This document shows, one piece after another, positions 4,957 through 14,506 of a stretch of DNA of 32,000 bases. The notes beneath the pieces are model-generated. The model ran no database searches, was not told where the DNA came from, and worked only from the letters and a program-made list of their open reading frames with translations. Made by a program: the position numbers and the translations under genes. Position 1 is the stretch's first letter. Every line of letters begins with the position of its first letter. This DNA is from Flagellatimonas centrodinii (GTDB taxonomy: Bacteria; Pseudomonadota; Gammaproteobacteria; Nevskiales; Nevskiaceae): contig NZ_CP092105.1 of assembly GCF_016918765.2 (NCBI RefSeq), forward strand, positions 79,160 to 111,159, written 5' to 3'.

Positions 4957-5766
4957 ATGGAGGCTGAGCCTGCACCATTCAGCCCCATGAGCACCATCAT
5001 CATTCCCGAAGTCATTGGCGCCCAAAAGCACCCTGCTGTCGCAGAAGTGGCAGAACGGGAGGGCTATGGATCAGATGACGGCCGCCAGCCGCCTGCCGTC
5101 GGGAGGGCCGTCACCCTGGTGAGGTCGGACGTGGGGCTGACAAAGCGATTTGGGGTGTGGGCTCTGTTGGCTGCCGTCCTCGCTAGCCTCGTCAGCGGAT
5201 GGGTGACGTTGGGGCGGCGCCACATTCCTGCTGGCGCCGTGGGTCTGATGCAATTCACCGATCACGCCGAGGTTTATCCGAGCGGGACATTCCTTCTGAC
5301 CCCCTGGAGTCCCGAACCACAGTTACTCGATATCGGATCCCAGGTGTCAACTGTGGAGCTCGGAGGAATGGTCGTGGACCGCGAGGGCTTGCCGGTCCCT
5401 TCGCTGACGATCGAAGTGGTGCACCGGTTCGATCCAGCGTTCGCCCAGAGGTTATTGGCCGCAGGCGCCGCCGGTGGCGAGGCGGTACGAATCCGCGTGA
5501 AGTCGGCAGCGACGGCCGCGATGGTGGAGATACTTTCAGAGTTGACGTCCATCGAGTTGGCGAGGATCGGCTTTCGCCTGTCTCCATTGTTGGATGAGCG
5601 TGTTCGGACACTGATCGAGGCTGCATGGCCATCCGATCTTCGCGACGGGATCATCGTCGAACACGTGAGTTTGACGGAGTTGGCCGTCGACGCTGAAGTG
5701 CAACACGCGCTCATGGAAAGTTCGCGGAAGCAGGCTCTGACCGCATTGCTCGAGGGTGCGCCATGA
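4957..5766 (+). CDS. SPFH/band-7-like membrane protein
   Basis: The ORF-track start at 4723 reads through the terminator. I prefer ATG 4957, which has GGGAG 11 nt upstream. One TM (FGVWALLAAVLASLVSGWVTL) is followed by an HflK/C-like pattern (IPAGAVGLMQF...YPSGTFLLTPW...VVDREGLPVPSLTIEVVHRFDP...IIVEHVSLTELAVDAEVQHAL). Confidence 0.55.
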   Translation: MEAEPAPFSPMSTIIIPEVIGAQKHPAVAEVAEREGYGSDDGRQPPAVGRAVTLVRSDVGLTKRFGVWALLAAVLASLVSGWVTLGRRHIPAGAVGLMQFTDHAEVYPSGTFLLTPWSPEPQLLDIGSQVSTVELGGMVVDREGLPVPSLTIEVVHRFDPAFAQRLLAAGAAGGEAVRIRVKSAATAAMVEILSELTSIELARIGFRLSPLLDERVRTLIEAAWPSDLRDGIIVEHVSLTELAVDAEVQHALMESSRKQALTALLEGAP

Positions 5767-6254
5767 GCAGGTGGTGGGCTGGACTTTCTATCTCACTGCT
5801 GCTGCTGGCATCTGCATGTGGTGGCGACGAGGTGGGCGGCATCACGGTTCCGGAGATCAAGCCGCCGCCATGTGTGGTGTCGGCGGAGACGGGGCGACTG
5901 CACAATCACCCAGCCAGGGTTTGGATCGTTAAAGAGCCTCGTGCCGATGACGACCTGGCGTACATGGTAATGAGGTCGGTGTTCGGATTGGCCCTGAACG
6001 GTCCAGAGCTGCTTGATGCGGTGAGGGTCGACCTGGTGATTGAACCTTGGACTTTCGACCTTCGTGATGGTGTCGAAATCGTGCGCGCGCCGAGCGGCGT
6101 GGGCGTGGATCTCCGGTTCAGAAGCTCCTACGCGCCTGAGATCGTCCGAATGGTGCAAGGTCAGCGGCACGCGGTGCTGAAGGTAGGGATCGGCCCCGAG
6201 GAATCTGCGCTGCGCATGATCGCCAGGCGTGAGCGCAAGGACTGCGAAGCGTGA
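5763..6254 (+). CDS. Putative lipoprotein
   Basis: ATGA start/stop overlap with the upstream gene. Signal peptide with a lipobox-like LLLASAC|GG. Confidence 0.55.
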   Translation: MSRWWAGLSISLLLLASACGGDEVGGITVPEIKPPPCVVSAETGRLHNHPARVWIVKEPRADDDLAYMVMRSVFGLALNGPELLDAVRVDLVIEPWTFDLRDGVEIVRAPSGVGVDLRFRSSYAPEIVRMVQGQRHAVLKVGIGPEESALRMIARRERKDCEA

Positions 6255-8344
6255 ACGCGCTCGACGCCGCCCCGGCAAAGGGGTCGGCGGCGGAAGAGAT
6301 TGCAACAGCGAATGACCGGCCACTCTTGCTGCCATGCGGATTCGACGACCTCACGGTGGCCCCCCTCCGTCGCTTCCGGGCGAGGGACCTGCAGCCATTC
6401 ATCGGACAGGACGTTGTAGTCGAGGCGGCGGTATTCCGGGTAGTACCTGACCGCCGATCGCTGGGGATCTTGGGCGTCCTCATTGGACAAACCGGAGCCG
6501 GCCTCATGATTCTGGGGGGCTACGACTCTGCGCCGGTGCTTCGATATCTACTCTCGCCCAAGCGCGCCGCCTTTTTACTTTATGGCCGGATTCGCAAGGA
6601 AAGCGGCCTGTTGTGCATGCGTGATGTTGAGCCGATTTCGCGTGAATGGTGCGGGCAAATCAGACCTCGATATCCGTTGGATGGTCGGGTGGTTGCGGCG
6701 CAAGTTCGCCGTATTGCCGATATCGAGAAGGACAGCTATCTGGCCGACGCCCGCGCCCAGGCGATTCGACGGGCCAAGGTACGATCCAATCTCGACTCCA
6801 TCGTCCAGTCTGCGGCGGCCACGGTGCTGGAGGAATCATTAAAGCATCCGAAGAGCGTAGAAGCCGCTCTGGGTGTGCTGACGCGGATTGAGGCGCGGAC
6901 GAAGCTCCGGGGCATCCTGCGGGTGCTTCACAAGCCTGACTCGATGACCAGTGCGTTGGCTGCCTTGCACAAGATCCAGGTGGTCGCCGCAGTGTGCATG
7001 CTGCAGGAGGGTGTTGAGGCGAACTTCACCGCGTACCAGAAGCGACGGAGGATCAAACGCGACGCGCCAGCTGTCGCTCTCGAAGTGCTCGCCGGCGGCA
7101 AGGCCGCTGCTCTGGCCCGGCTCTGCATGTACTACCCCTATACGCTGACGGACGAGCAACAAACCGCAATATGGGAATGCCTCAACGAACTCAACGGTGA
7201 GCGTTTCGTGCGCTGGCTCATATCCGGCGATGTGGGGACCGGAAAAACCGACACCTTCGGCGCAATCGCCCGAGCTATGGCTTTGTCGGGGCATCGGGTC
7301 GCGGTGCTGTGCCCCACAGCGAATCTAGTTCGGCAGACCTTCGCGAAGCTAGCAAGCTGGAATCCCGATGTCGGTATGAGCTTCACCGCGGGCCGCGAGG
7401 TTGAGGGCGATCCCGAGACAGCTTTGATCCAGGTGGGGACGCTGGCACTGCGCCGATCGGCGCGACGCTTCGACCTGGTGGTGGTCGACGAGCAGCAGAG
7501 ATTTGCCCGAATGCAGCGCGAAGAGTTGATGTCGTCGGCCGGCCACCTGATTGAAGCTACAGCAACCTGCATTCCCCGCACCCAGGGCCTGGCTGATCTG
7601 GGCGCAATCAAAGTCAGCCGGCTGCGGAAATGCCACGTCGAGAAGGCCATCACCACACGCATCTTCGAGCACAACGAGCGGCGCGCGCTGTTCGCTGGGG
7701 TGCGGGAAAGCGTCGAGGCTGGGCGGAAAGTGCTGGTGTTCTATCCGGCGATTCATGGCAGCGGCGCCGCACACGTGGCCACCTTGATGGAGTACGAGCA
7801 GGCCTGGAGAAAGCTGTTCGGTGATCGCCTCGGCGTTGTACACGGGGCCCTCAAGCCCACGGACGCCCAGGCGGTGATCGACCAACTGCGGTCGAACAAG
7901 GTCGACGTAGTCCTGACCACCACACTGCTGGAAATGGGTCTCGATGTGCCAGATATCCAGCGAGTTGTGGTCGTCCAGGCCCAGCGATTCGGACTGACGA
8001 CGCTCCATCAGATCCGAGGGAGGGTTGCCCGTGCCGGCGGTGAGGGCTATTGCGATCTCTACATGCTCGGTGACTACTCGGCGAAGTCACGGAGGCGGAT
8101 GGAAGTCATGACCCGCACCACGGATGGCTTCGTGATAGCTCGGATGGACGCGCAGCTGCGCGGTACCGGCGACGTCACAGAGCACGGACACCGGCAGAAA
8201 GGATCACTACCTGGCAATCCGTTCGTCAATCTGCCGGTCCCCCCGAAGGCCATGGACGAGGCCGCACGCGCGCTCTACAAGGTTTGGTTCGATCCAGCTG
8301 CAGAGGTGGTGGCCGGGGCGAGCGGCCAACCCGATGGCGGGTAG
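6251..8344 (+). CDS. RecG-like SF2 DNA helicase
   Basis: GTGA overlap with the upstream gene. Walker A GDVGTGKTD, motif II VVVDEQQRF, ATCIPRT (RecG ATPIPRT), TTTLLEMGLDVPD, and FGLTTLHQIRGRVARAG (RecG FGLAQLHQLRGRVGRG). The N-terminal ~170 aa parallels the RecG wedge/OB region. Confidence 0.8.
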   Translation: MNALDAAPAKGSAAEEIATANDRPLLLPCGFDDLTVAPLRRFRARDLQPFIGQDVVVEAAVFRVVPDRRSLGILGVLIGQTGAGLMILGGYDSAPVLRYLLSPKRAAFLLYGRIRKESGLLCMRDVEPISREWCGQIRPRYPLDGRVVAAQVRRIADIEKDSYLADARAQAIRRAKVRSNLDSIVQSAAATVLEESLKHPKSVEAALGVLTRIEARTKLRGILRVLHKPDSMTSALAALHKIQVVAAVCMLQEGVEANFTAYQKRRRIKRDAPAVALEVLAGGKAAALARLCMYYPYTLTDEQQTAIWECLNELNGERFVRWLISGDVGTGKTDTFGAIARAMALSGHRVAVLCPTANLVRQTFAKLASWNPDVGMSFTAGREVEGDPETALIQVGTLALRRSARRFDLVVVDEQQRFARMQREELMSSAGHLIEATATCIPRTQGLADLGAIKVSRLRKCHVEKAITTRIFEHNERRALFAGVRESVEAGRKVLVFYPAIHGSGAAHVATLMEYEQAWRKLFGDRLGVVHGALKPTDAQAVIDQLRSNKVDVVLTTTLLEMGLDVPDIQRVVVVQAQRFGLTTLHQIRGRVARAGGEGYCDLYMLGDYSAKSRRRMEVMTRTTDGFVIARMDAQLRGTGDVTEHGHRQKGSLPGNPFVNLPVPPKAMDEAARALYKVWFDPAAEVVAGASGQPDGG

Positions 8345-8393: not shown

Positions 8394-9299
8394 CTATCGG
8401 TGAGGCGCGCGGATGGCAACGACTTTAGCCCCGGGGTCGCCATCGTCGACAGGGTGGAGATCCGACCCTGAAGCCGCAGCAGCGGTTTCGGCCGGCGCTG
8501 GCCAAAGATCTACTTCTACTTCGCTGCGGCCATGCTGCTGGTATCGGGGCATCACGATGCCGGCGTCGACGGTGCCGCCGGCAGGGAGTGGCCTGAGCAT
8601 CTTGGCCAGGGCGGAATCAGTGCCGCGAAGAACCTGTCCCTCGGAGCTGGTGACCAGTGAAAACAGCGGGAGCGCCTCCCAGCTATAGGCCTCATCAAGC
8701 CGAACGAGGGACCACTGTAGACGCGGTGGCGCCATCCGCGGTGACGGGATCGGTCCCTCGAGGCGCCAGGTGTAGCCAGGCGGTAGCTCCCGGTTGACCT
8801 TCGGAAGGAGCTCGCCCGAGAGCACGGAGCGCTCGATCAGGGTCCACTCGTAGGCTGCAGATATCGACCAGATGTCCCGCATGGCGGCATAGGTGGTTAT
8901 CGCAGGCATCAGGCCGGCAAGCTGGTCTAGCCCCACTTTGTCGACGTCGACGGCGAACAGCAGGGCAGGATGCGATCGAAGTGCATTGAGCACGCACAAC
9001 TCAAGTCCATGCAGGTAGCTCAATGGTCGACGGACGTGGTCGTGAATCACGCTCTGAAGCTCAAGTTCGGATAGCCGGAAGCGCATTCTGGCCAGACCGT
9101 ACGAGATATCGCCGGTAAGACGGCCGACCTGGTAGAGCGATACGTCGGTAATCAGTTCATTGCCTCGGCCGACGATGACCACCATGCCGGGCGCGCCAGG
9201 CGGAACGAGCGTGGCCAGCACCTCGTGGGCCTGGGCGACCCGGAAAAGCGGATCGGTCGAGGTGGCGGCCGTGTTGGGGGGCCCGATCTCATCGGCCAC
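8394..9299 (-). CDS. Hypothetical protein (301 aa), co-oriented downstream of the Tus-like gene
   Basis: GTG start preceded by GGAGGAG. No motif recognised. Confidence 0.55.
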   Translation of the reverse strand: MADEIGPPNTAATSTDPLFRVAQAHEVLATLVPPGAPGMVVIVGRGNELITDVSLYQVGRLTGDISYGLARMRFRLSELELQSVIHDHVRRPLSYLHGLELCVLNALRSHPALLFAVDVDKVGLDQLAGLMPAITTYAAMRDIWSISAAYEWTLIERSVLSGELLPKVNRELPPGYTWRLEGPIPSPRMAPPRLQWSLVRLDEAYSWEALPLFSLVTSSEGQVLRGTDSALAKMLRPLPAGGTVDAGIVMPRYQQHGRSEVEVDLWPAPAETAAAASGSDLHPVDDGDPGAKVVAIRAPHR

Positions 9300-9371: not shown

Positions 9372-10298
9372 TCATCCCTCATTTAGAGGCGCGTCGGTGC
9401 CAGAATCGATTGATTTGGAGGCCTGACGTTCCCGGTGTTGATAGAGGTACCTGTAGACGTGCAAGCGCGGCAGGAGCGGCTCGAGCTCGACCTTGCGATC
9501 GCTGCGGCGGCTGGTGGGAACATCGACCAGATCCGATAGCATGTTCAGGCCGGGCCACCGGCCGGCCGGGATGAATAGGGGCAGTGCCCCGGGTATCGGT
9601 GGGAGCGGCTCGCCATCGATCCAAACAAGGAGCTCCACATGGGGAGCCACCGGCTTGCGAATAACCAGCACCTCGGCATCATGCAGTCCTTCCAGGGCCG
9701 CGAGTTCGCGCTCGATCGTTTCGTCGGACAGCGTGCCACGCTGTCGCCGCTCAGCGTTTTGGATTCGCCTGCGGACATCGGCCACCGTCAGCCGTTTGCC
9801 GGTGGTTGCGCCGCGGTTCCAGAAGAAGCTGACACGCTCCGGCGGCTGCTGAAGCATATGGAGCTGGCGGTAGACCTGCAGCCGCTGCACGTGGGCGAAT
9901 GGACGCATTTTGCGAACCTGAGTGAAGGTGTACTCGTCGATCGCCCTCCCCCGCTCGGCGAACACCTTCTTTGCCCGATTGACGTCCTCCAGCGCTTCGA
10001 GCGTCTGCGGTGAGCATGCCAGCAGACCTGGAGCACGTACGCTGGCCACCGGCGCCTGGCCAGGCCGGTAGTTCATGAGGGACAGTGCGGCGGCCGCCCA
10101 GTTTCGAGCGCCCTCGCCTTCTAGGCTGTTCACCGCCATGGTCCGTTGTGCCGCCGGCGAATCACGCTCGGCCAGGACCGCGGCGTATGCCGGAAGGCGA
10201 CCGTCAACCCGACGGACGCAATCGGACAGCTCCGACAAGGCGCCGCGGACCCGGTCATAGGCGTCCAGCAGCCCCACAAAGACTTCAGGCTCAACCAT
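9372..10298 (-). CDS. Tus-like (DNA replication terminus site-binding protein family) candidate
   Basis: Preferred start is ATG 10298 (MVEPEVF...) with AGAGGTGGGT upstream, not 10340. At 308 aa it is the same size as E. coli Tus. Collinear matches to my recollection of Tus, ours listed first: VRAPGLLAC vs VRLPGVLCY; LQVYRQLHML vs LNAYRTLTVL; VSFFWNRG vs LRFGWANKH; VIRKPVAPHVELLVW vs KIKRPVKVQPIARVW; LLPRLHVY vs IIPRLHLY near the C-terminus. Confidence 0.55.
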   Translation of the reverse strand: MVEPEVFVGLLDAYDRVRGALSELSDCVRRVDGRLPAYAAVLAERDSPAAQRTMAVNSLEGEGARNWAAAALSLMNYRPGQAPVASVRAPGLLACSPQTLEALEDVNRAKKVFAERGRAIDEYTFTQVRKMRPFAHVQRLQVYRQLHMLQQPPERVSFFWNRGATTGKRLTVADVRRRIQNAERRQRGTLSDETIERELAALEGLHDAEVLVIRKPVAPHVELLVWIDGEPLPPIPGALPLFIPAGRWPGLNMLSDLVDVPTSRRSDRKVELEPLLPRLHVYRYLYQHRERQASKSIDSGTDAPLNEG

Positions 10299-10308
10299 AC
10301 CCACCTCT

Positions 10309-10327
10309 TTTATAAACCATCCCCCTA
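10309..10327. repeat. Left arm of a perfect 19-bp inverted repeat (TTTATAAACCATCCCCCTA)
   Basis: Exact reverse complement of 10464-10482. Ends 10 nt upstream of the Tus-like start codon and abuts its SD. Confidence 0.9.
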
Positions 10328-10463
10328 GTACACCAGCCACCCCACTCCTGCCACCCCCACCCGCTATCCCCCTGACCCACCGACATTTCTTTTTCTCTTT
10401 TCCCCCTCTTCTTCTCCCCTCTTAAAGCTTGGGCGGCCGGGGCTGGGGCTGGGCGCCCTTGTT

Positions 10464-10482
10464 TAGGGGGATGGTTTATAAA
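10464..10482. repeat. Right arm of a perfect 19-bp inverted repeat (TAGGGGGATGGTTTATAAA)
   Basis: Exact reverse complement of 10309-10327. Lies 26 nt upstream of the ATG at 10509. Contains a TATAAA -10-like hexamer. Confidence 0.9.
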
Positions 10483-10508
10483 CGGGGGTGCGCACGGTCT
10501 AAGGGATC

Positions 10509-12668
10509 ATGACCCGACGCCGCAACAGAACAACCATCGACGGCCGCGTCTTGCGCGCCTGGCGAAGTCCGACAGGCTCGGCGGTGGCCCAACTGCAGGT
10601 CGAGAGCGAGATCGTGCCGGTGCTGGCCAAGAACATGGCGCTGGTGAGCGACGAGGTCGTCTGTCTGGAGGGCAAATGGACCTCGCACGTCGGTTCGGGC
10701 CGCCTGTTCCTGGCGGCAAAGATCCGGACGCGCCCTCCCGAGAGCCTGGCCGCTTCGGCATCGATGCTGGCGGAGGCCTTGGAAGTCGATATCGGCGACA
10801 TCAACCGGCTCATCAGCCGCTTCGGTGACGACCTGCTGAGCGTGCTGGACGGCGGCCATGCGAAACGGCTCACGGATGCCGGATTCGACGCCGGCATGGC
10901 GCGCACCATGATGACGAACTGGGCTTCGCATCGGTCGCACCAGGCCTTGGCACCGCTGCTGGGGAAGCTCGGCCTCGACGAAGAGGCGCTGGAAGCCCTC
11001 CGCAATGTGTTCGGCAGCTCCGTCGATCTCGATCGACAGCTCCGCGAGCAGCCCTACAACGTGATTCTGCATCTGCCGACCGCACAGTGGGATCGCGTCG
11101 AACGGGTCGCTCGTGAGTTGGGGATAGCCGAGGATGCACCCCAGCGGCTGGATGCTGCTGTCATCGCCGAGCTGCGAGCTCGAGGGTTCAGCGGGCACAC
11201 CTACATGACCCTCGATTGGCTGAGGGAGGCCGCCCTGGCCAGGTTGGGGCTGAGCGAACGAAAGACCGCGAGACGCGCGCTCGAGGCAAGAATCGACACA
11301 CTGCGGGCCGAGCGCCTGCTGACGATTGATGCCGACCGTGCATTCCTGCCACAGGCTTTCGAGGAAGCGGCCGCTCTGGCTGAAGGGGTGCTGTCGCACA
11401 GTCGGGCCTTGGCAGACATCGACCCGCCAGACGATCGAGAAGCCCTGGAACACGCGCTATCGAAGATGAGCGTGCCGGAGGGAGTTGATCCGTGGGAGCT
11501 TGGCAGGTTCGCACTGGGCGGAGCGCTCTCCGTGATCTGCGTGCAGGGGCTTGAGGCAGCGCTAGATGTGGCGACGGGCCTCGATCAGGTGTGCGACGTT
11601 CTGAAGATCAAGATGGGGCTCATCTGCCCAACCCTCTGGGCTGAAACCGCATTGAACGAACGTGGCCTGGTGAGTCGGCCGAAAACGCTGCACGAGATGT
11701 TGGGGACTCCGCCGCGGTACGACAAGATCAGCGGTCTGCAGGTTGAGTTGATCGTCATTCTGGGCGCGGACCAGCTTTCATCCGACCAGCTGCACGGGCT
11801 GTTTCGTGCGCGGCCCGACGGCGTTGGGCTGGTTCTGATCGGGGACGACTCGCTGGACACGGGATTCATTCTCGGCCGACCGTTCCGGGATATCGCCAGT
11901 GCCGGCGACGAGGTCGGCGACGCTATTCGCATGATCCGGCATCCGACTGGTGGAGCGCTGGTCACCAGGGCTCGACGCCTAATGGACGCCCCGGAGATGA
12001 TCGGCCGCTTGCAAGGGCGCTTTCAGTTGCCGCTGTCAGCACATGAATGTCGGACTGAAGACGTAGACGGCGCGGTCTACAGCATCGTGGAGCGCGTGCT
12101 TCCAAGGTTGAACGCTCTCGATGAAAGCTACGCGGTCTGTTACCCGCGGAGGGCGGGACTCCCTGATCCCACGGTCCTCGCTGACCGACTGGAGCAGCTT
12201 GAGAGCACTGAAGCAGCGATCGCCTTCGGGCGACGATCTTGGCGGTCCGGGGCAAAGGTCTACTTCACCGAGCCACTGCCAGGGGAGATCACAATCCCGG
12301 CCTTCACCCGACTCGAGCTTCGTCTGATTGATGCCAGTCCGGGACCCTTCCCGGCACGCACCGTCGATGGCCGGGAACTGGCGATTACAGCCGCACAATT
12401 GGAGCGCGCATTTCCTGCGCGGGTGGCACCGGTTCACGCGGTGCTGTGGCAACCGGTTGATACGCTCATCCTGATGCTGCCTCCCGGCCGGCTCCATCAC
12501 GCACGTCGCATCCTCTATTCCATGGCAGCCAGCGCGCGCCGGCGCCTGATCCTGGTTGGAGCTACTGAGGCGTTCACTGCCGCCTTGTCGGAAGACCATA
12601 GCGAGCCTTCAAGTCTGCTAAAGATGACGTTGGTAGGCCGCGCCCATCACGAGAGAGCATCCACATGA
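10509..12668 (+). CDS. RecD2/TraA-architecture SF1 helicase-like protein with degenerate ATPase motifs
   Basis: N-terminal OB/SH3-like segment (VVCLEGKWTSHVGSGRLFLAAKI), an HhH-like region, QPYNVI (RecD2 nPYxL), CPTLWAE...TLHEMLG (APTGRAA...TIHRLL) and a C-terminal RRRLILVG. However, Walker A is replaced by VQGLEAALD and Walker B DE by ILGADQ. Confidence 0.65.
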   Translation: MTRRRNRTTIDGRVLRAWRSPTGSAVAQLQVESEIVPVLAKNMALVSDEVVCLEGKWTSHVGSGRLFLAAKIRTRPPESLAASASMLAEALEVDIGDINRLISRFGDDLLSVLDGGHAKRLTDAGFDAGMARTMMTNWASHRSHQALAPLLGKLGLDEEALEALRNVFGSSVDLDRQLREQPYNVILHLPTAQWDRVERVARELGIAEDAPQRLDAAVIAELRARGFSGHTYMTLDWLREAALARLGLSERKTARRALEARIDTLRAERLLTIDADRAFLPQAFEEAAALAEGVLSHSRALADIDPPDDREALEHALSKMSVPEGVDPWELGRFALGGALSVICVQGLEAALDVATGLDQVCDVLKIKMGLICPTLWAETALNERGLVSRPKTLHEMLGTPPRYDKISGLQVELIVILGADQLSSDQLHGLFRARPDGVGLVLIGDDSLDTGFILGRPFRDIASAGDEVGDAIRMIRHPTGGALVTRARRLMDAPEMIGRLQGRFQLPLSAHECRTEDVDGAVYSIVERVLPRLNALDESYAVCYPRRAGLPDPTVLADRLEQLESTEAAIAFGRRSWRSGAKVYFTEPLPGEITIPAFTRLELRLIDASPGPFPARTVDGRELAITAAQLERAFPARVAPVHAVLWQPVDTLILMLPPGRLHHARRILYSMAASARRRLILVGATEAFTAALSEDHSEPSSLLKMTLVGRAHHERAST

Positions 12669-14506
12669 GTGTGCGCGAGCGCTACAGCTCTGAGGCCCGG
12701 GTGCGCGTACGCGCACACGATGAAATGCGGCGACTAAAGGCCACGCCGTTCACCCCCCTACTCGCGGCCATGGCGCCGTTCTTGCCCGCCCCGGCGTTCG
12801 GAGCGATCGGCATCGGCGCCGGCGTCTTTGCAGCCAACAGGCTGCAGGCGCTGAGGACACTTAGGAAGCCTCCAGAACTCGCAAAGCAACATCGGTTCGC
12901 TGGCCGCGAAGAGACGGGCATAGCCGATCGGATCTATCTCGGACACAGTATTGATTTCCTGACCTACAAATCAGGACTCGAGGCGCTGAGGGAAAGACAG
13001 GGCCGGCTTACCGCCGAAGAGCGGACCGACTATGACAACAGTGTCATCGAGAAGATGTTTCCCTCCTTCACCGACGACAAGAACATGGCAGCGCACATGG
13101 CGCTGCTAGGCAGCCCTGGGCAGGGGAAGACCGAATTTCTGCTGTCGCTCTGCTATCAGCAAGCCAAGCGCGGTGGCGGGATGATCATCTTCGACCCCAA
13201 GAGCGACGACAAGGTGTTCGCACGTATCGCCGAGATCATGCGTTTGACGAACCGCGAGCACGATCTGCGCTACTTCAACCCGGATCGGCCGAATCAGAGT
13301 CACACCTACAACCCGCTGCTTTTCGGGGATGCCCGTCATGTGGTGAGCACCGGAATGAAGCTCACCAAGACACCAACAGGGGGCGACTCGGACTTCTTCT
13401 ACCGGATGACACGCATCGGCATGCTCGCAGCCGTGGTTTGCCTGAAGGCGCAGCCCGAGTGGACACCGATATCGTTCCGAGATCTGGCCCCGCTGTTTTC
13501 AGATTTGGGTCTGTTCGCCGAACTCTGGCAACGCATCCCGGACGAAAACGTCGATGCGAAGGCATTCGTGTATCAGTTTTTACGTATGTGGCTGACACAA
13601 AACCGGCAAGGTCAGCTCGGGCCCGACTATCAGCAATACCTCAAAGTGCTGGCCGGATTGAAAGGCATGGTGATGGATTTCTGTCACGGCCCCTATATCC
13701 GACTGCTGAACTCCTACAACCCGGACATCGACCTGAAAGACGTGATCGAGAACGGGCGGGTGTTGTACGTGGGCTTCTCCGCCCTTTCTGACAAGCAAGG
13801 CAGCAATGTGTTCGGGCGGCTGCTAATGGCAGATGCGGCACGCGCACTCGGGGAGATCTACACCCAGCGAGTCCGGCCGGCCGTGTCATGCATGATTTTC
13901 ATGGACGAATACGGCTCCTCGGCAGACGAAGCCGACCTCGAGCTGTTTCAGATGGGTAGAGACGCCAATGTCCCGATTGTGGCAGCCGTACAGGGCCGGG
14001 GCTTCCTCGACTCGGTGAATCAGCACTTCGTCAGCAAATTACTCGACGCAACCGGCTCCCAACTTTTCCTGAGGGTATCAAGCGAGGAGAGCCGCAGTAC
14101 TGCAGCCGCGCTGGCCGGAACGATCATTGCCCGCTTTGGACAGGGGACCGACAGCCGGAACTTCGGCAGTAGTCACAAGAACTTCGAGACCGGGATGCTC
14201 AATCAAGAGAGCCACGGCCGCAGTGTCAGCGTCGGGTCCAGGGAGATGAGAGAGGACATGCTTCAGCCCGAGGATTTCGCATTGGCGAAGGGCGATGCAA
14301 TCCTGTTTTCCTCCTCAGGGGTGCATCGGATGCGCCTGCCACTGCTCACGTTCAAGACCGCGATCCCGCCTAGCGAGAAGGTATGGCTTCCACGCTTTGC
14401 GCGTCCGGAGGTCAAGGGGCTCGACTTGATGCGCCGCTCGATGGAGCACGACACGCACTTCATACACGCCTTCAGCAATGGGGCACTCGAAGACGAGGAC
14501 AGGTGA
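12665..14506 (+). CDS. Type IV coupling protein (TraD/VirD4 family)
   Basis: ATGA overlap with the upstream gene. N-terminal hydrophobic segments, Walker A LLGSPGQGKTE, and Walker B-like CMIFMDEYGS. Confidence 0.8.
   Translation: MSVRERYSSEARVRVRAHDEMRRLKATPFTPLLAAMAPFLPAPAFGAIGIGAGVFAANRLQALRTLRKPPELAKQHRFAGREETGIADRIYLGHSIDFLTYKSGLEALRERQGRLTAEERTDYDNSVIEKMFPSFTDDKNMAAHMALLGSPGQGKTEFLLSLCYQQAKRGGGMIIFDPKSDDKVFARIAEIMRLTNREHDLRYFNPDRPNQSHTYNPLLFGDARHVVSTGMKLTKTPTGGDSDFFYRMTRIGMLAAVVCLKAQPEWTPISFRDLAPLFSDLGLFAELWQRIPDENVDAKAFVYQFLRMWLTQNRQGQLGPDYQQYLKVLAGLKGMVMDFCHGPYIRLLNSYNPDIDLKDVIENGRVLYVGFSALSDKQGSNVFGRLLMADAARALGEIYTQRVRPAVSCMIFMDEYGSSADEADLELFQMGRDANVPIVAAVQGRGFLDSVNQHFVSKLLDATGSQLFLRVSSEESRSTAAALAGTIIARFGQGTDSRNFGSSHKNFETGMLNQESHGRSVSVGSREMREDMLQPEDFALAKGDAILFSSSGVHRMRLPLLTFKTAIPPSEKVWLPRFARPEVKGLDLMRRSMEHDTHFIHAFSNGALEDEDR

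Follow-up and report, generated by a model that had tools for sequence, protein, structure and literature searches.

Opposed candidate Ter sites upstream of a plasmid-borne tus homolog in Flagellatimonas centrodinii

Plasmids of the R6K and IncFII/R1 types carry ter sites of the Escherichia coli type, use the Tus protein of their host and are not known to carry a tus gene of their own; in Bacillus subtilis, the IRI/IRII layout is found just upstream of rtp. At the tus promoter of E. coli, TerB autoregulates tus (Toft 2021, PMC8707476), and Goodall 2023 (PMC10331603) also cites autoregulation that acts by way of a promoter-borne ter site. According to the latter, the opposed ter pair of plasmid R1 (terRL/terRR), which lies near the origin, enforces unidirectional replication. 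Plasmid-borne 'mobile' tus genes have already been described in gamma-proteobacteria (Galli et al. 2019, PMC6549158). The protein family and its occurrence on plasmids are already established, and so are autoregulation by Ter and plasmid-borne ter pairs in opposed orientation. Here, we describe a 32-kb stretch of contig NZ_CP092105.1 from Flagellatimonas centrodinii, a gamma-proteobacterium of the order Nevskiales (the whole stretch is called the window in the following), in which the gene for a Tus-like protein of 308 amino acids (aa) is preceded by a perfect 19-bp inverted repeat.

Reviews consider that Tus-Ter was probably domesticated from plasmids, and they list the ter sites of Tus homologs outside Enterobacterales as unknown. 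The Ter sites of Pseudoalteromonas were not found with the E. coli consensus (Xie 2021), and the ter site of this genus is marked with a question mark in Goodall 2023 (PMC10331603). In the literature that we searched, we found no report of cognate sites for Tus proteins encoded on plasmids or otherwise outside the enterobacteria and no description of the present sites or of an opposed-site cassette, and other papers there mention plasmid tus genes as annotations only. We propose that the Tus-like protein and the two arms of the repeat constitute an autoregulated, self-contained two-site fork trap, which would resemble the arrangements on R6K and R1, use its own Tus and have a new specificity. 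We judge this proposal to be rather probable, and in the following we set out the evidence on which it rests and the alternatives to it.

The Tus-like protein and the arms of the repeat

A preliminary description of this locus had assigned the 308-aa protein to the Tus family, and this was borne out by a hidden Markov model (HMM) search, by profile-to-PDB comparison and by the predicted fold. The Pfam profile PF05472 (Ter) matches the protein with E=7.3e-13 and 48.7 bits (cut-off 22), aligning residues 53-282 with profile positions 47-296 of 296. As a single sequence, the protein has no match in a PDB search; an exhaustive HMMER search gives 285 relatives at E<=0.001, and a profile from 52 of these matches the PDB Tus chains 1ECR/4XR0 with E=1e-39 over the full length (residues 13-299). 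The comparison by hhalign gives 99.6% probability over 280 columns. The full-length collinearity with E. coli Tus that had been claimed holds for the 52-sequence profile, and the block PRLHVY against PRLHLY is real in the hhalign alignment. The AlphaFold2 (AF2) model of the protein has a predicted local distance difference test (pLDDT) score of 77.4 and a predicted template modelling (pTM) score of 0.69; in a Foldseek comparison with the PDB, it matches Tus chains only (E=1e-14, template modelling (TM) score 0.69-0.72), and the next match is at E=0.7. The model is thereby assigned to the Tus fold, in which interdomain beta-strands that grip the DNA connect two alpha/beta domains. In NCBI, the identical protein is assigned to a 146,558-bp contig, has a precomputed PF05472 match and bears the name 'DNA replication terminus site-binding protein (plasmid) [Flagellatimonas centrodinii]'. 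The identity to E. coli Tus is about 17-21%. W160, R88 and R187 occupy the alignment columns of W172, R93 and R198 of E. coli Tus; W172 and R93 are conserved, and R198 is so in the clade of the window. Judged from sequence and predicted structure, the 308-aa protein is a true but very distant member of the Tus family, not an ortholog-level equivalent of E. coli Tus.

The gene and the repeat are located where they had been placed before (Table 1). The two arms form a perfect 19-bp inverted pair with 136 nucleotides (nt) between them, and the pairing extends to 24 nt at 92% (10304-10327 / 10464-10487). The proximal arm ends exactly 10 nt from the ATG of the tus-like gene; the distal arm ends 26 nt from the ATG (10509) of a divergent gene for a 719-aa protein. 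Within the window, the 19-mer with <=3 mismatches occurs at these two places only, where 0 matches are expected (100 shuffles), and the 8.7 kb that adjoin the window on its left yielded no further copy of the arm. The 9-mer GATGGTTTA, which is common to the sites of the distant relative L044 described below, is confined in the window to the two arms, and a matrix built for the sites of the family gives 19.4 bits to the distal arm, 18.1 bits to the proximal arm and 9.7 bits to the next best position in the window. No flanking direct repeat or target-site duplication was seen at the arms.

The distance of the proximal arm from the start codon is also that of TerB in E. coli MG1655, which ends exactly 10 nt from the tus ATG and reads from position 1 to 23 toward the gene. 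A placement like that of TerB had been suggested; the orientation agrees too, in the best (non-significant) register of the two sequences. It was also correct that neither arm contains the E. coli Ter core GTTGTAAC; the arms do not fit the E. coli-type Ter consensus AGNATGTTGTAAYKAA with its GC6 base pair either. The specificity of the arms, as read from their sequence, is new and not E. coli-like. An alignment of the arms to Ter positions 6-19 made by eye was dropped as evidence, as the matrix and consensus comparisons given below are non-significant, and it was kept as a lead on polarity only.

The start of the tus-like gene is called in two ways: NCBI and ENA give the 308-aa product (MVEPEVF...) from the ATG at 10298, and the Logan call in L046 gives 322 aa from a GTG at 10340 (9372-10340, minus strand). 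The proximal arm would fall within the coding sequence because of the GTG start at 10340. AGAGGTGGG precedes the ATG of the 308-aa product, and the conserved Shine-Dalgarno sequence, together with the 308-aa call in the closest relative, favours the ATG at 10298.

The spacer between the arms has an unusual composition. A pure pyrimidine run of 38 nt lies on the plus strand at 10386-10423 and is purine on the tus-coding strand; the spacer contains a 30/30 purine window, which ranks within the highest 0.03% of 30-nt windows across the 32-kb stretch. A simple scan detected no sigma-70-like promoter in the spacer. Outward-firing -10 elements within the arms were considered and rejected, since the transcript would start inside or after the conserved Shine-Dalgarno sequence. 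Possible functions of the homopurine tract are the formation of H-DNA, fork pausing or a part in a promoter.

Opposed sites at plasmid-type tus loci

Our sample for comparison is 20 plasmid-type tus loci; P0006 was not evaluated, its contig ending 103 nt upstream of the gene. Opposed sites are found upstream of tus in 14 of the 20 (the window and 13 others), down to 22-40% protein identity. All of these site-bearing loci have the G-rich ends of the sites turned inward and the proximal site beside the start codon. The spacing of the pair ranges over 80-266 bp across the relatives, and the common core is GGGRTGGTWT, with GATGGTTTA in the clade of the window. Opposed pairs with the core GGGRTGGTATTAT, spaced by 80-262 bp, occur where the Tus-like proteins are only 24-35% identical to that of the window, namely in the pCAR1 group, Azotobacter pAcX50f, P. 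putida YC-AE1, P. mandelii JR-1, P. psychrotolerans and P. asturiensis; the pair in a Methylophaga plasmid is likewise opposed, with a different sequence. Purine/pyrimidine tracts as extreme as that of the window lie between the sites in 13 of the 14 loci (the window, L001, L008-L011, L030-L033, L035, L037 and L044); they are mostly purine on the tus-coding strand and inverted in L035 and L044.

Conservation of the 19-mer next to orthologs had been named as a test of the site hypothesis, and the arms are kept there. The closest relative is a syntenic metagenome element, the only one recovered when metagenome contigs were searched with a tight alignment. Its protein is 89% identical, and its arms are identical at 36 of 38 positions (proximal 17/19, distal 19/19). 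The spacer is 76% identical as a whole, its homopurine tract 89%, and the stretches between arm and ATG 50-77%, with 50% for the 10 nt beside the proximal arm. The nearest more distant relative that we traced, P0003/L044 (GCA_043955455.1, JBINOE010001086.1), has a protein that is ~38-40% identical. Within 370 bp upstream of its tus gene (5627-5989) there are five perfect 13-mers GGATGATGGTTTA, two of them inverted relative to the other three, and none was found elsewhere in the 11 kb of L044; this array resembles a fork trap in miniature that has several sites, some of them as back-up. The copy proximal to tus is followed by AGAGGTGGGT(C)ATG, the same context as in the window.

The pCAR1 group gives a similar picture. 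Over all 199,035 bp of pCAR1, the two arms, with 28 bits each, are the only strong matches of the site matrix, and the next match has 15.5 bits. The third-best match, TTTCATGGATGGTTTTATG at 88562-88580 (L039), is the one with 15.5 bits and is probably due to chance. The pair adjoins tus at 66.2 kb, with repA ~3 kb away; more generally, it stands 2-4 kb downstream of the rep gene in pCAR1-type, TrfA-type and HS-18 plasmids. HS-18 has diverged furthest within the pCAR1 group; its upstream region is almost wholly changed, with both arms invariant.

Across 13 loci, the identity of the sites tracks the identity of the protein (Spearman 0.85, Mantel P<0.0002), and the sites are 47-74% identical where the proteins are 28-40% identical. 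The sole gene that constantly adjoins the pair is tus; the other neighbours in the window recur only in the 89% relative. Beyond plasmids, the chromosomal ('resident') tus of Aeromonas caviae KAM479 has an opposed pair upstream, ATCATACTGGTATGGTTATT, 272 nt apart and 85% complementary (L036:2441-2460 and 2733-2752, in a 4.9-Mb record filed in PLSDB as a plasmid), and the ATGGTT core of these sites matches the arms in the window. In 185,579 genomes, a collection evidently without the F. centrodinii plasmid, the conserved 17-mer gave 18 singleton chance matches, none of them beside a tus-like gene. It is by computation that we observe which family and fold the protein has, that the sites exist, are unique and conserved and stand in this geometry, and that they co-vary with the protein. 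As far as computation goes, conservation, geometry and co-variation uphold the earlier suggestion that the arms are cognate Ter-like sites, and the arms are very probably the binding sites of the Tus-like protein.

Two megaplasmids, pNY11382-IMP (L034:2750-2800) and pQBR103 (L050:1210-1260), have a conserved stretch upstream of tus with TTTGGTTATG, which is reminiscent of the TGGTT core; it may be a single vicinal site.

Plasmid-borne tus homologs are widely recorded. By tblastn, Tus-like genes, annotated as such, are found on 67 PLSDB records, 55 of them from Pseudomonas (including pCAR1, pWW53 and pQBR103) and the remainder from Azotobacter, Aeromonas, Methylophaga, Photobacterium and Halomonas; overall, the carriers are mostly GC-rich plasmids of Pseudomonas and Azotobacter. 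A megablast search of PLSDB with the locus itself gave no match. The preliminary description had called a homolog in a GC-rich conjugative replicon unusual. Its hypothesis on the family and the sites stands, but the claim of rarity does not, in view of the NCBI annotation, the 67 PLSDB records and the catalogue of Galli et al. 2019. Its wording 'IncFII/R6K plasmid system' also blurs the distinction between ter sites carried on a plasmid and a Tus protein supplied by the host. The MOB-suite marker 'rep_cluster_1115' is a Tus gene wrongly listed as a replication initiator (2026 bioRxiv preprint); a plasmid Tus with its own opposed pair explains why this marker travels with replication regions. 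The 'IncP' replicon calls for L008, L011, L031 and L037 may be inflated by this marker.

Neighbouring genes and the replicon

The features of the locus are collected in Table 1. The divergent RecD2-like gene, whose product reaches 89 bits with the NCBIfam model helicase_RecD2, under its cut-off, is followed by a gene for an SXT-type TraD coupling protein and then by F-like type IV secretion system (T4SS) genes. It could be co-regulated with tus, as the distal site is so close to its ATG, and we regard it as context rather than as a proven part of the system; it is syntenic in L001-L006 and not adjacent to tus in other plasmids. The spot upstream of the SXT-type traD (10509-14506 in the window) is taken by the MobH relaxase in pCAR1 and SXT and by the 719-aa RecD2-like protein here. 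No relaxase domain is detectable in the 719-aa protein, and no relaxase was identified anywhere in the window.

Table 1. Features of the tus-like locus and its surroundings (positions in the window)
Feature	Coordinates	Strand	Remarks
RecG-like helicase	6251-8344	+	TIGR00643 274 bits, below cut-off
301-aa open reading frame	8394-9299	-	72 nt downstream of tus-like gene, same strand
tus-like gene, 308-aa Tus-family protein	9372-10298	-	stop codon 9372-9374, ATG 10296-10298
Gap between proximal site and ATG, 10 nt	10299-10308	-	contains Shine-Dalgarno-like AGAGGTGGGT
Proximal site, candidate Ter/operator	10309-10327	-	TAGGGGGATGGTTTATAAA on tus-coding strand, A/T-rich end toward tus
Spacer between opposed sites, 136 bp	10328-10463	.	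holds 38-nt pyrimidine run
Distal site, candidate Ter/operator	10464-10482	+	TAGGGGGATGGTTTATAAA on plus strand; G-rich end to spacer, A/T-rich end to divergent gene
RecD2-like helicase gene, 719 aa, divergent	10509-12668	+	heads transfer-gene block; Pfam HHH_RecD2 1.3e-9

The 301-aa reading frame has no Pfam or NCBIfam match; it is 85% conserved in the syntenic relative and absent from other tus loci, and it may be co-transcribed with tus. A gene for a 5'-3' exonuclease lies 8 kb further left (L046:2707-3555), and in pCAR1-type plasmids a 3'-5' exonuclease/UvrD-like gene adjoins tus instead. RecG and exonucleases process fork-fusion intermediates in E. coli. Together with tus, the RecG-like, RecD2-like and exonuclease genes could form a module for termination and fork processing, and these genes are not common to the lineages. 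A KfrA-like gene is found at the left end of the window.

A putative fork trap, its alternatives and its relation to known systems

We propose the following course of events. One Tus-like monomer would bind to each asymmetric arm; an asymmetric core is as expected for a polar monomer complex. The proximal complex, lying between any upstream promoter and the ribosome-binding site, would repress its own gene, as TerB does, and expression of the RecD2-like gene, which starts 26 nt from the distal complex, may be damped as well in this element. A replication fork coming from either side would pass the first complex, the A/T-rich face being permissive, and would halt at the second, the G-rich face being non-permissive. 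As the two complexes would have opposite polarity, they would make up a minimal two-way fork trap, and the replication of the plasmid would end inside the spacer. The G-rich end is assigned as the non-permissive face by analogy, from the orientation of TerB relative to tus and from the need for forks to enter the spacer. On pCAR1-like plasmids, where the cassette lies ~3 kb from repA, one fork would be stopped almost at once, making replication effectively unidirectional; this is the layout of R1 with its terRL/terRR pair, which depends on the Tus of the host.

Several observations weigh against this proposal. The protein reaches 22 bits with PRK02951, the NCBIfam equivalog for enterobacterial Tus, far below the cut-off of 323. 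In E. coli Tus, the flipped C6 is held by F140, H144 and G149 (Goodall 2023 Table 1, PMC10331603); in a gapped alignment at ~20% identity, these residues correspond to V128, M131 and H136, in columns that vary among the plasmid proteins. This alignment, which is weak in that region, does not support a Ter-lock of the E. coli type. Against a matrix of E. coli Ter sites (TerB as checked in MG1655, together with other Ter sequences), the arms score -0.8 and 2.4 bits, and chance matches in the window reach up to 13.6 bits. When the consensus of the plasmid sites is compared with Ter, the best register keeps G6/R8/T9/G10/T12/T14 in the same orientation, with P=0.14, and the L044 site has T instead of G at the G6-equivalent position. 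A recognisable pair is absent in 6 of the 20 loci: Halomonas, Photobacterium, A. hydrophila pMAH4, pQBR103, pNY11382-IMP and P. brassicacearum. Shared ancestry is partly behind the co-variation of DNA and protein that are linked. On the F. centrodinii plasmid, no replication-initiator gene was found from ~18 kb left to 21 kb right of the pair, and the GC skew is positive on both sides with no change of sign; this region supports neither an origin-proximal nor an opposite-origin role. Moreover, binding, autoregulation, the assignment of polarity and fork arrest are steps that we infer.

The most serious alternative is that the arms are an operator pair only. The Tus-like protein would then be a repressor of itself and of the divergent RecD2-like/transfer operon, perhaps looping the 136-bp spacer, and would have no role at forks. 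Both arms lie just upstream of start codons in the window (10 and 26 nt), the documented role of TerB at tus is autoregulation, and the C6-lock residues that are not conserved in the weak alignment, together with the lack of a skew switch and of a nearby rep gene in the F. centrodinii plasmid, would all be as expected. However, the distal arm of pCAR1-type plasmids follows a terminator hairpin and faces no divergent gene, so that the logic of two divergent promoters is not general; a simple repressor does not require the opposed orientation that is kept in every site-bearing locus, including the two-plus-three array of L044, and the predicted fold is that of a dedicated fork-arrest protein. 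We consider a pure operator pair unlikely, though far from negligible; an operator role as such is compatible with the fork trap as a partial truth. If the arms were only operators, the finding would shrink to a routine autoregulated plasmid gene. It is also conceivable that the arms are bound by some other factor of the plasmid or the host, for example a KfrA/KorB-type protein for partition or central control, and lie beside tus incidentally. The KfrA-like gene at the left end of the window would suit this idea, the arm ends TGGTATTAT / TATAAA resemble -10 promoter elements, and it is by inference that the sites are ascribed to the Tus-like protein. But tus alone accompanies the pair across 14 loci with differing neighbours, the sites co-vary with the Tus-like protein, and there is one pair per plasmid, at tus, where global plasmid regulators have sites at several operons; an unrelated binding protein is therefore improbable.

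Two further readings concern the repeat itself. Inverted repeats are frequent in transfer origin (oriT) regions, and in the window the pair lies in the intergenic region that directly precedes the opening gene of the traD/T4SS block, which might make it part of an oriT or a relaxosome binding site heading the transfer operon. This is very improbable, as the pair stays with tus and not with transfer genes (in pCAR1, mobH/traD at 124-128 kb and mobI at 165 kb are 58-99 kb away from it), is present in plasmids typed as non-mobilizable and has its arms 80-266 bp apart, unlike oriT hairpins. Hardly any weight is left for chance, or for the inverted ends of a small mobile element, no longer active, that had inserted upstream of the gene (a miniature inverted-repeat transposable element, MITE). 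It is true that two 19-24-bp repeats of the terminal type bracket ~136 bp; yet 0 of 100 shuffles yield a match, one pair is found per replicon with no target-site duplication, the spacer varies in length while the core of the arms is kept across very distant tus lineages, and the 17-mer is nowhere beside mobile-element genes in the 185,579 genomes.

The fork trap with its own Tus is thus the explanation that we prefer for the F. centrodinii locus, and it can be extended. In this extension, tus, two opposed cognate sites and a homopurine spacer would form a conserved, portable and self-contained fork-trap cassette of gamma-proteobacterial plasmids with its own Ter specificity (GGGRTGGTWT; GATGGTTTA in the clade of the window), the long-postulated plasmid precursor of enterobacterial Tus-Ter; the sites, including the A. 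caviae pair, would be the first Ter candidates for a non-enterobacterial Tus, and the tract would be a functional third component. We put this forward tentatively, as quite possible. A plasmid Tus with its own opposed pair at the promoter is the layout predicted for such a precursor, and the hypothesis of plasmid origin becomes experimentally testable. The sites would be the first concrete candidate 'stop signs' for Tus proteins outside enterobacteria, and they would supply orthogonal Tus-Ter pairs, which Toft et al. 2021 (PMC8707476) wanted as tools.

Compared with E. coli Tus/TerB, the locus has the same protein family and predicted fold, the same kind of ~20-bp asymmetric site ending 10 nt from the ATG and, in the best (non-significant) register, the same orientation of the site relative to the gene. 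It differs in the ~17-21% protein identity, in a site sequence without GTTGTAAC, in the C6-lock residues, which are not conserved in the weak alignment, and in scale and setting: tens to hundreds of kb lie between opposed sites on the E. coli chromosome, and 136 bp on the plasmid described here. The type I/II fork traps of Enterobacterales (Toft 2021) are the comparison group for an autoregulated vicinal Ter. With the ter pairs of R6K and R1, the locus shares two short opposed sites close together on a plasmid, 136 bp apart here; the known pairs halt forks arriving from either side. The R1 pair lies next to the origin, and that of the pCAR1-type relatives ~3 kb from repA. In contrast to R6K and R1, the F. 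centrodinii plasmid encodes its own Tus homolog, its sites lack the Ter consensus, one of them is the probable operator of the gene, a homopurine tract lies between them, and no origin was found in the region covered, from ~18 kb left to 21 kb right of the pair.

The F. centrodinii gene is itself one of the 'mobile' plasmid tus genes of Galli et al. 2019 (PMC6549158), being a plasmid-borne, gamma-proteobacterial member of PF05472; that study catalogued the genes and did not identify cognate ter sites. Finally, the arrangement proposed here, two opposed terminators directly upstream of the gene for the terminator protein, with autoregulation, is the same as for RTP of Bacillus subtilis. RTP, however, is an unrelated protein, a winged-helix dimer of which each site takes up four monomers, and the two systems resemble each other by convergence.

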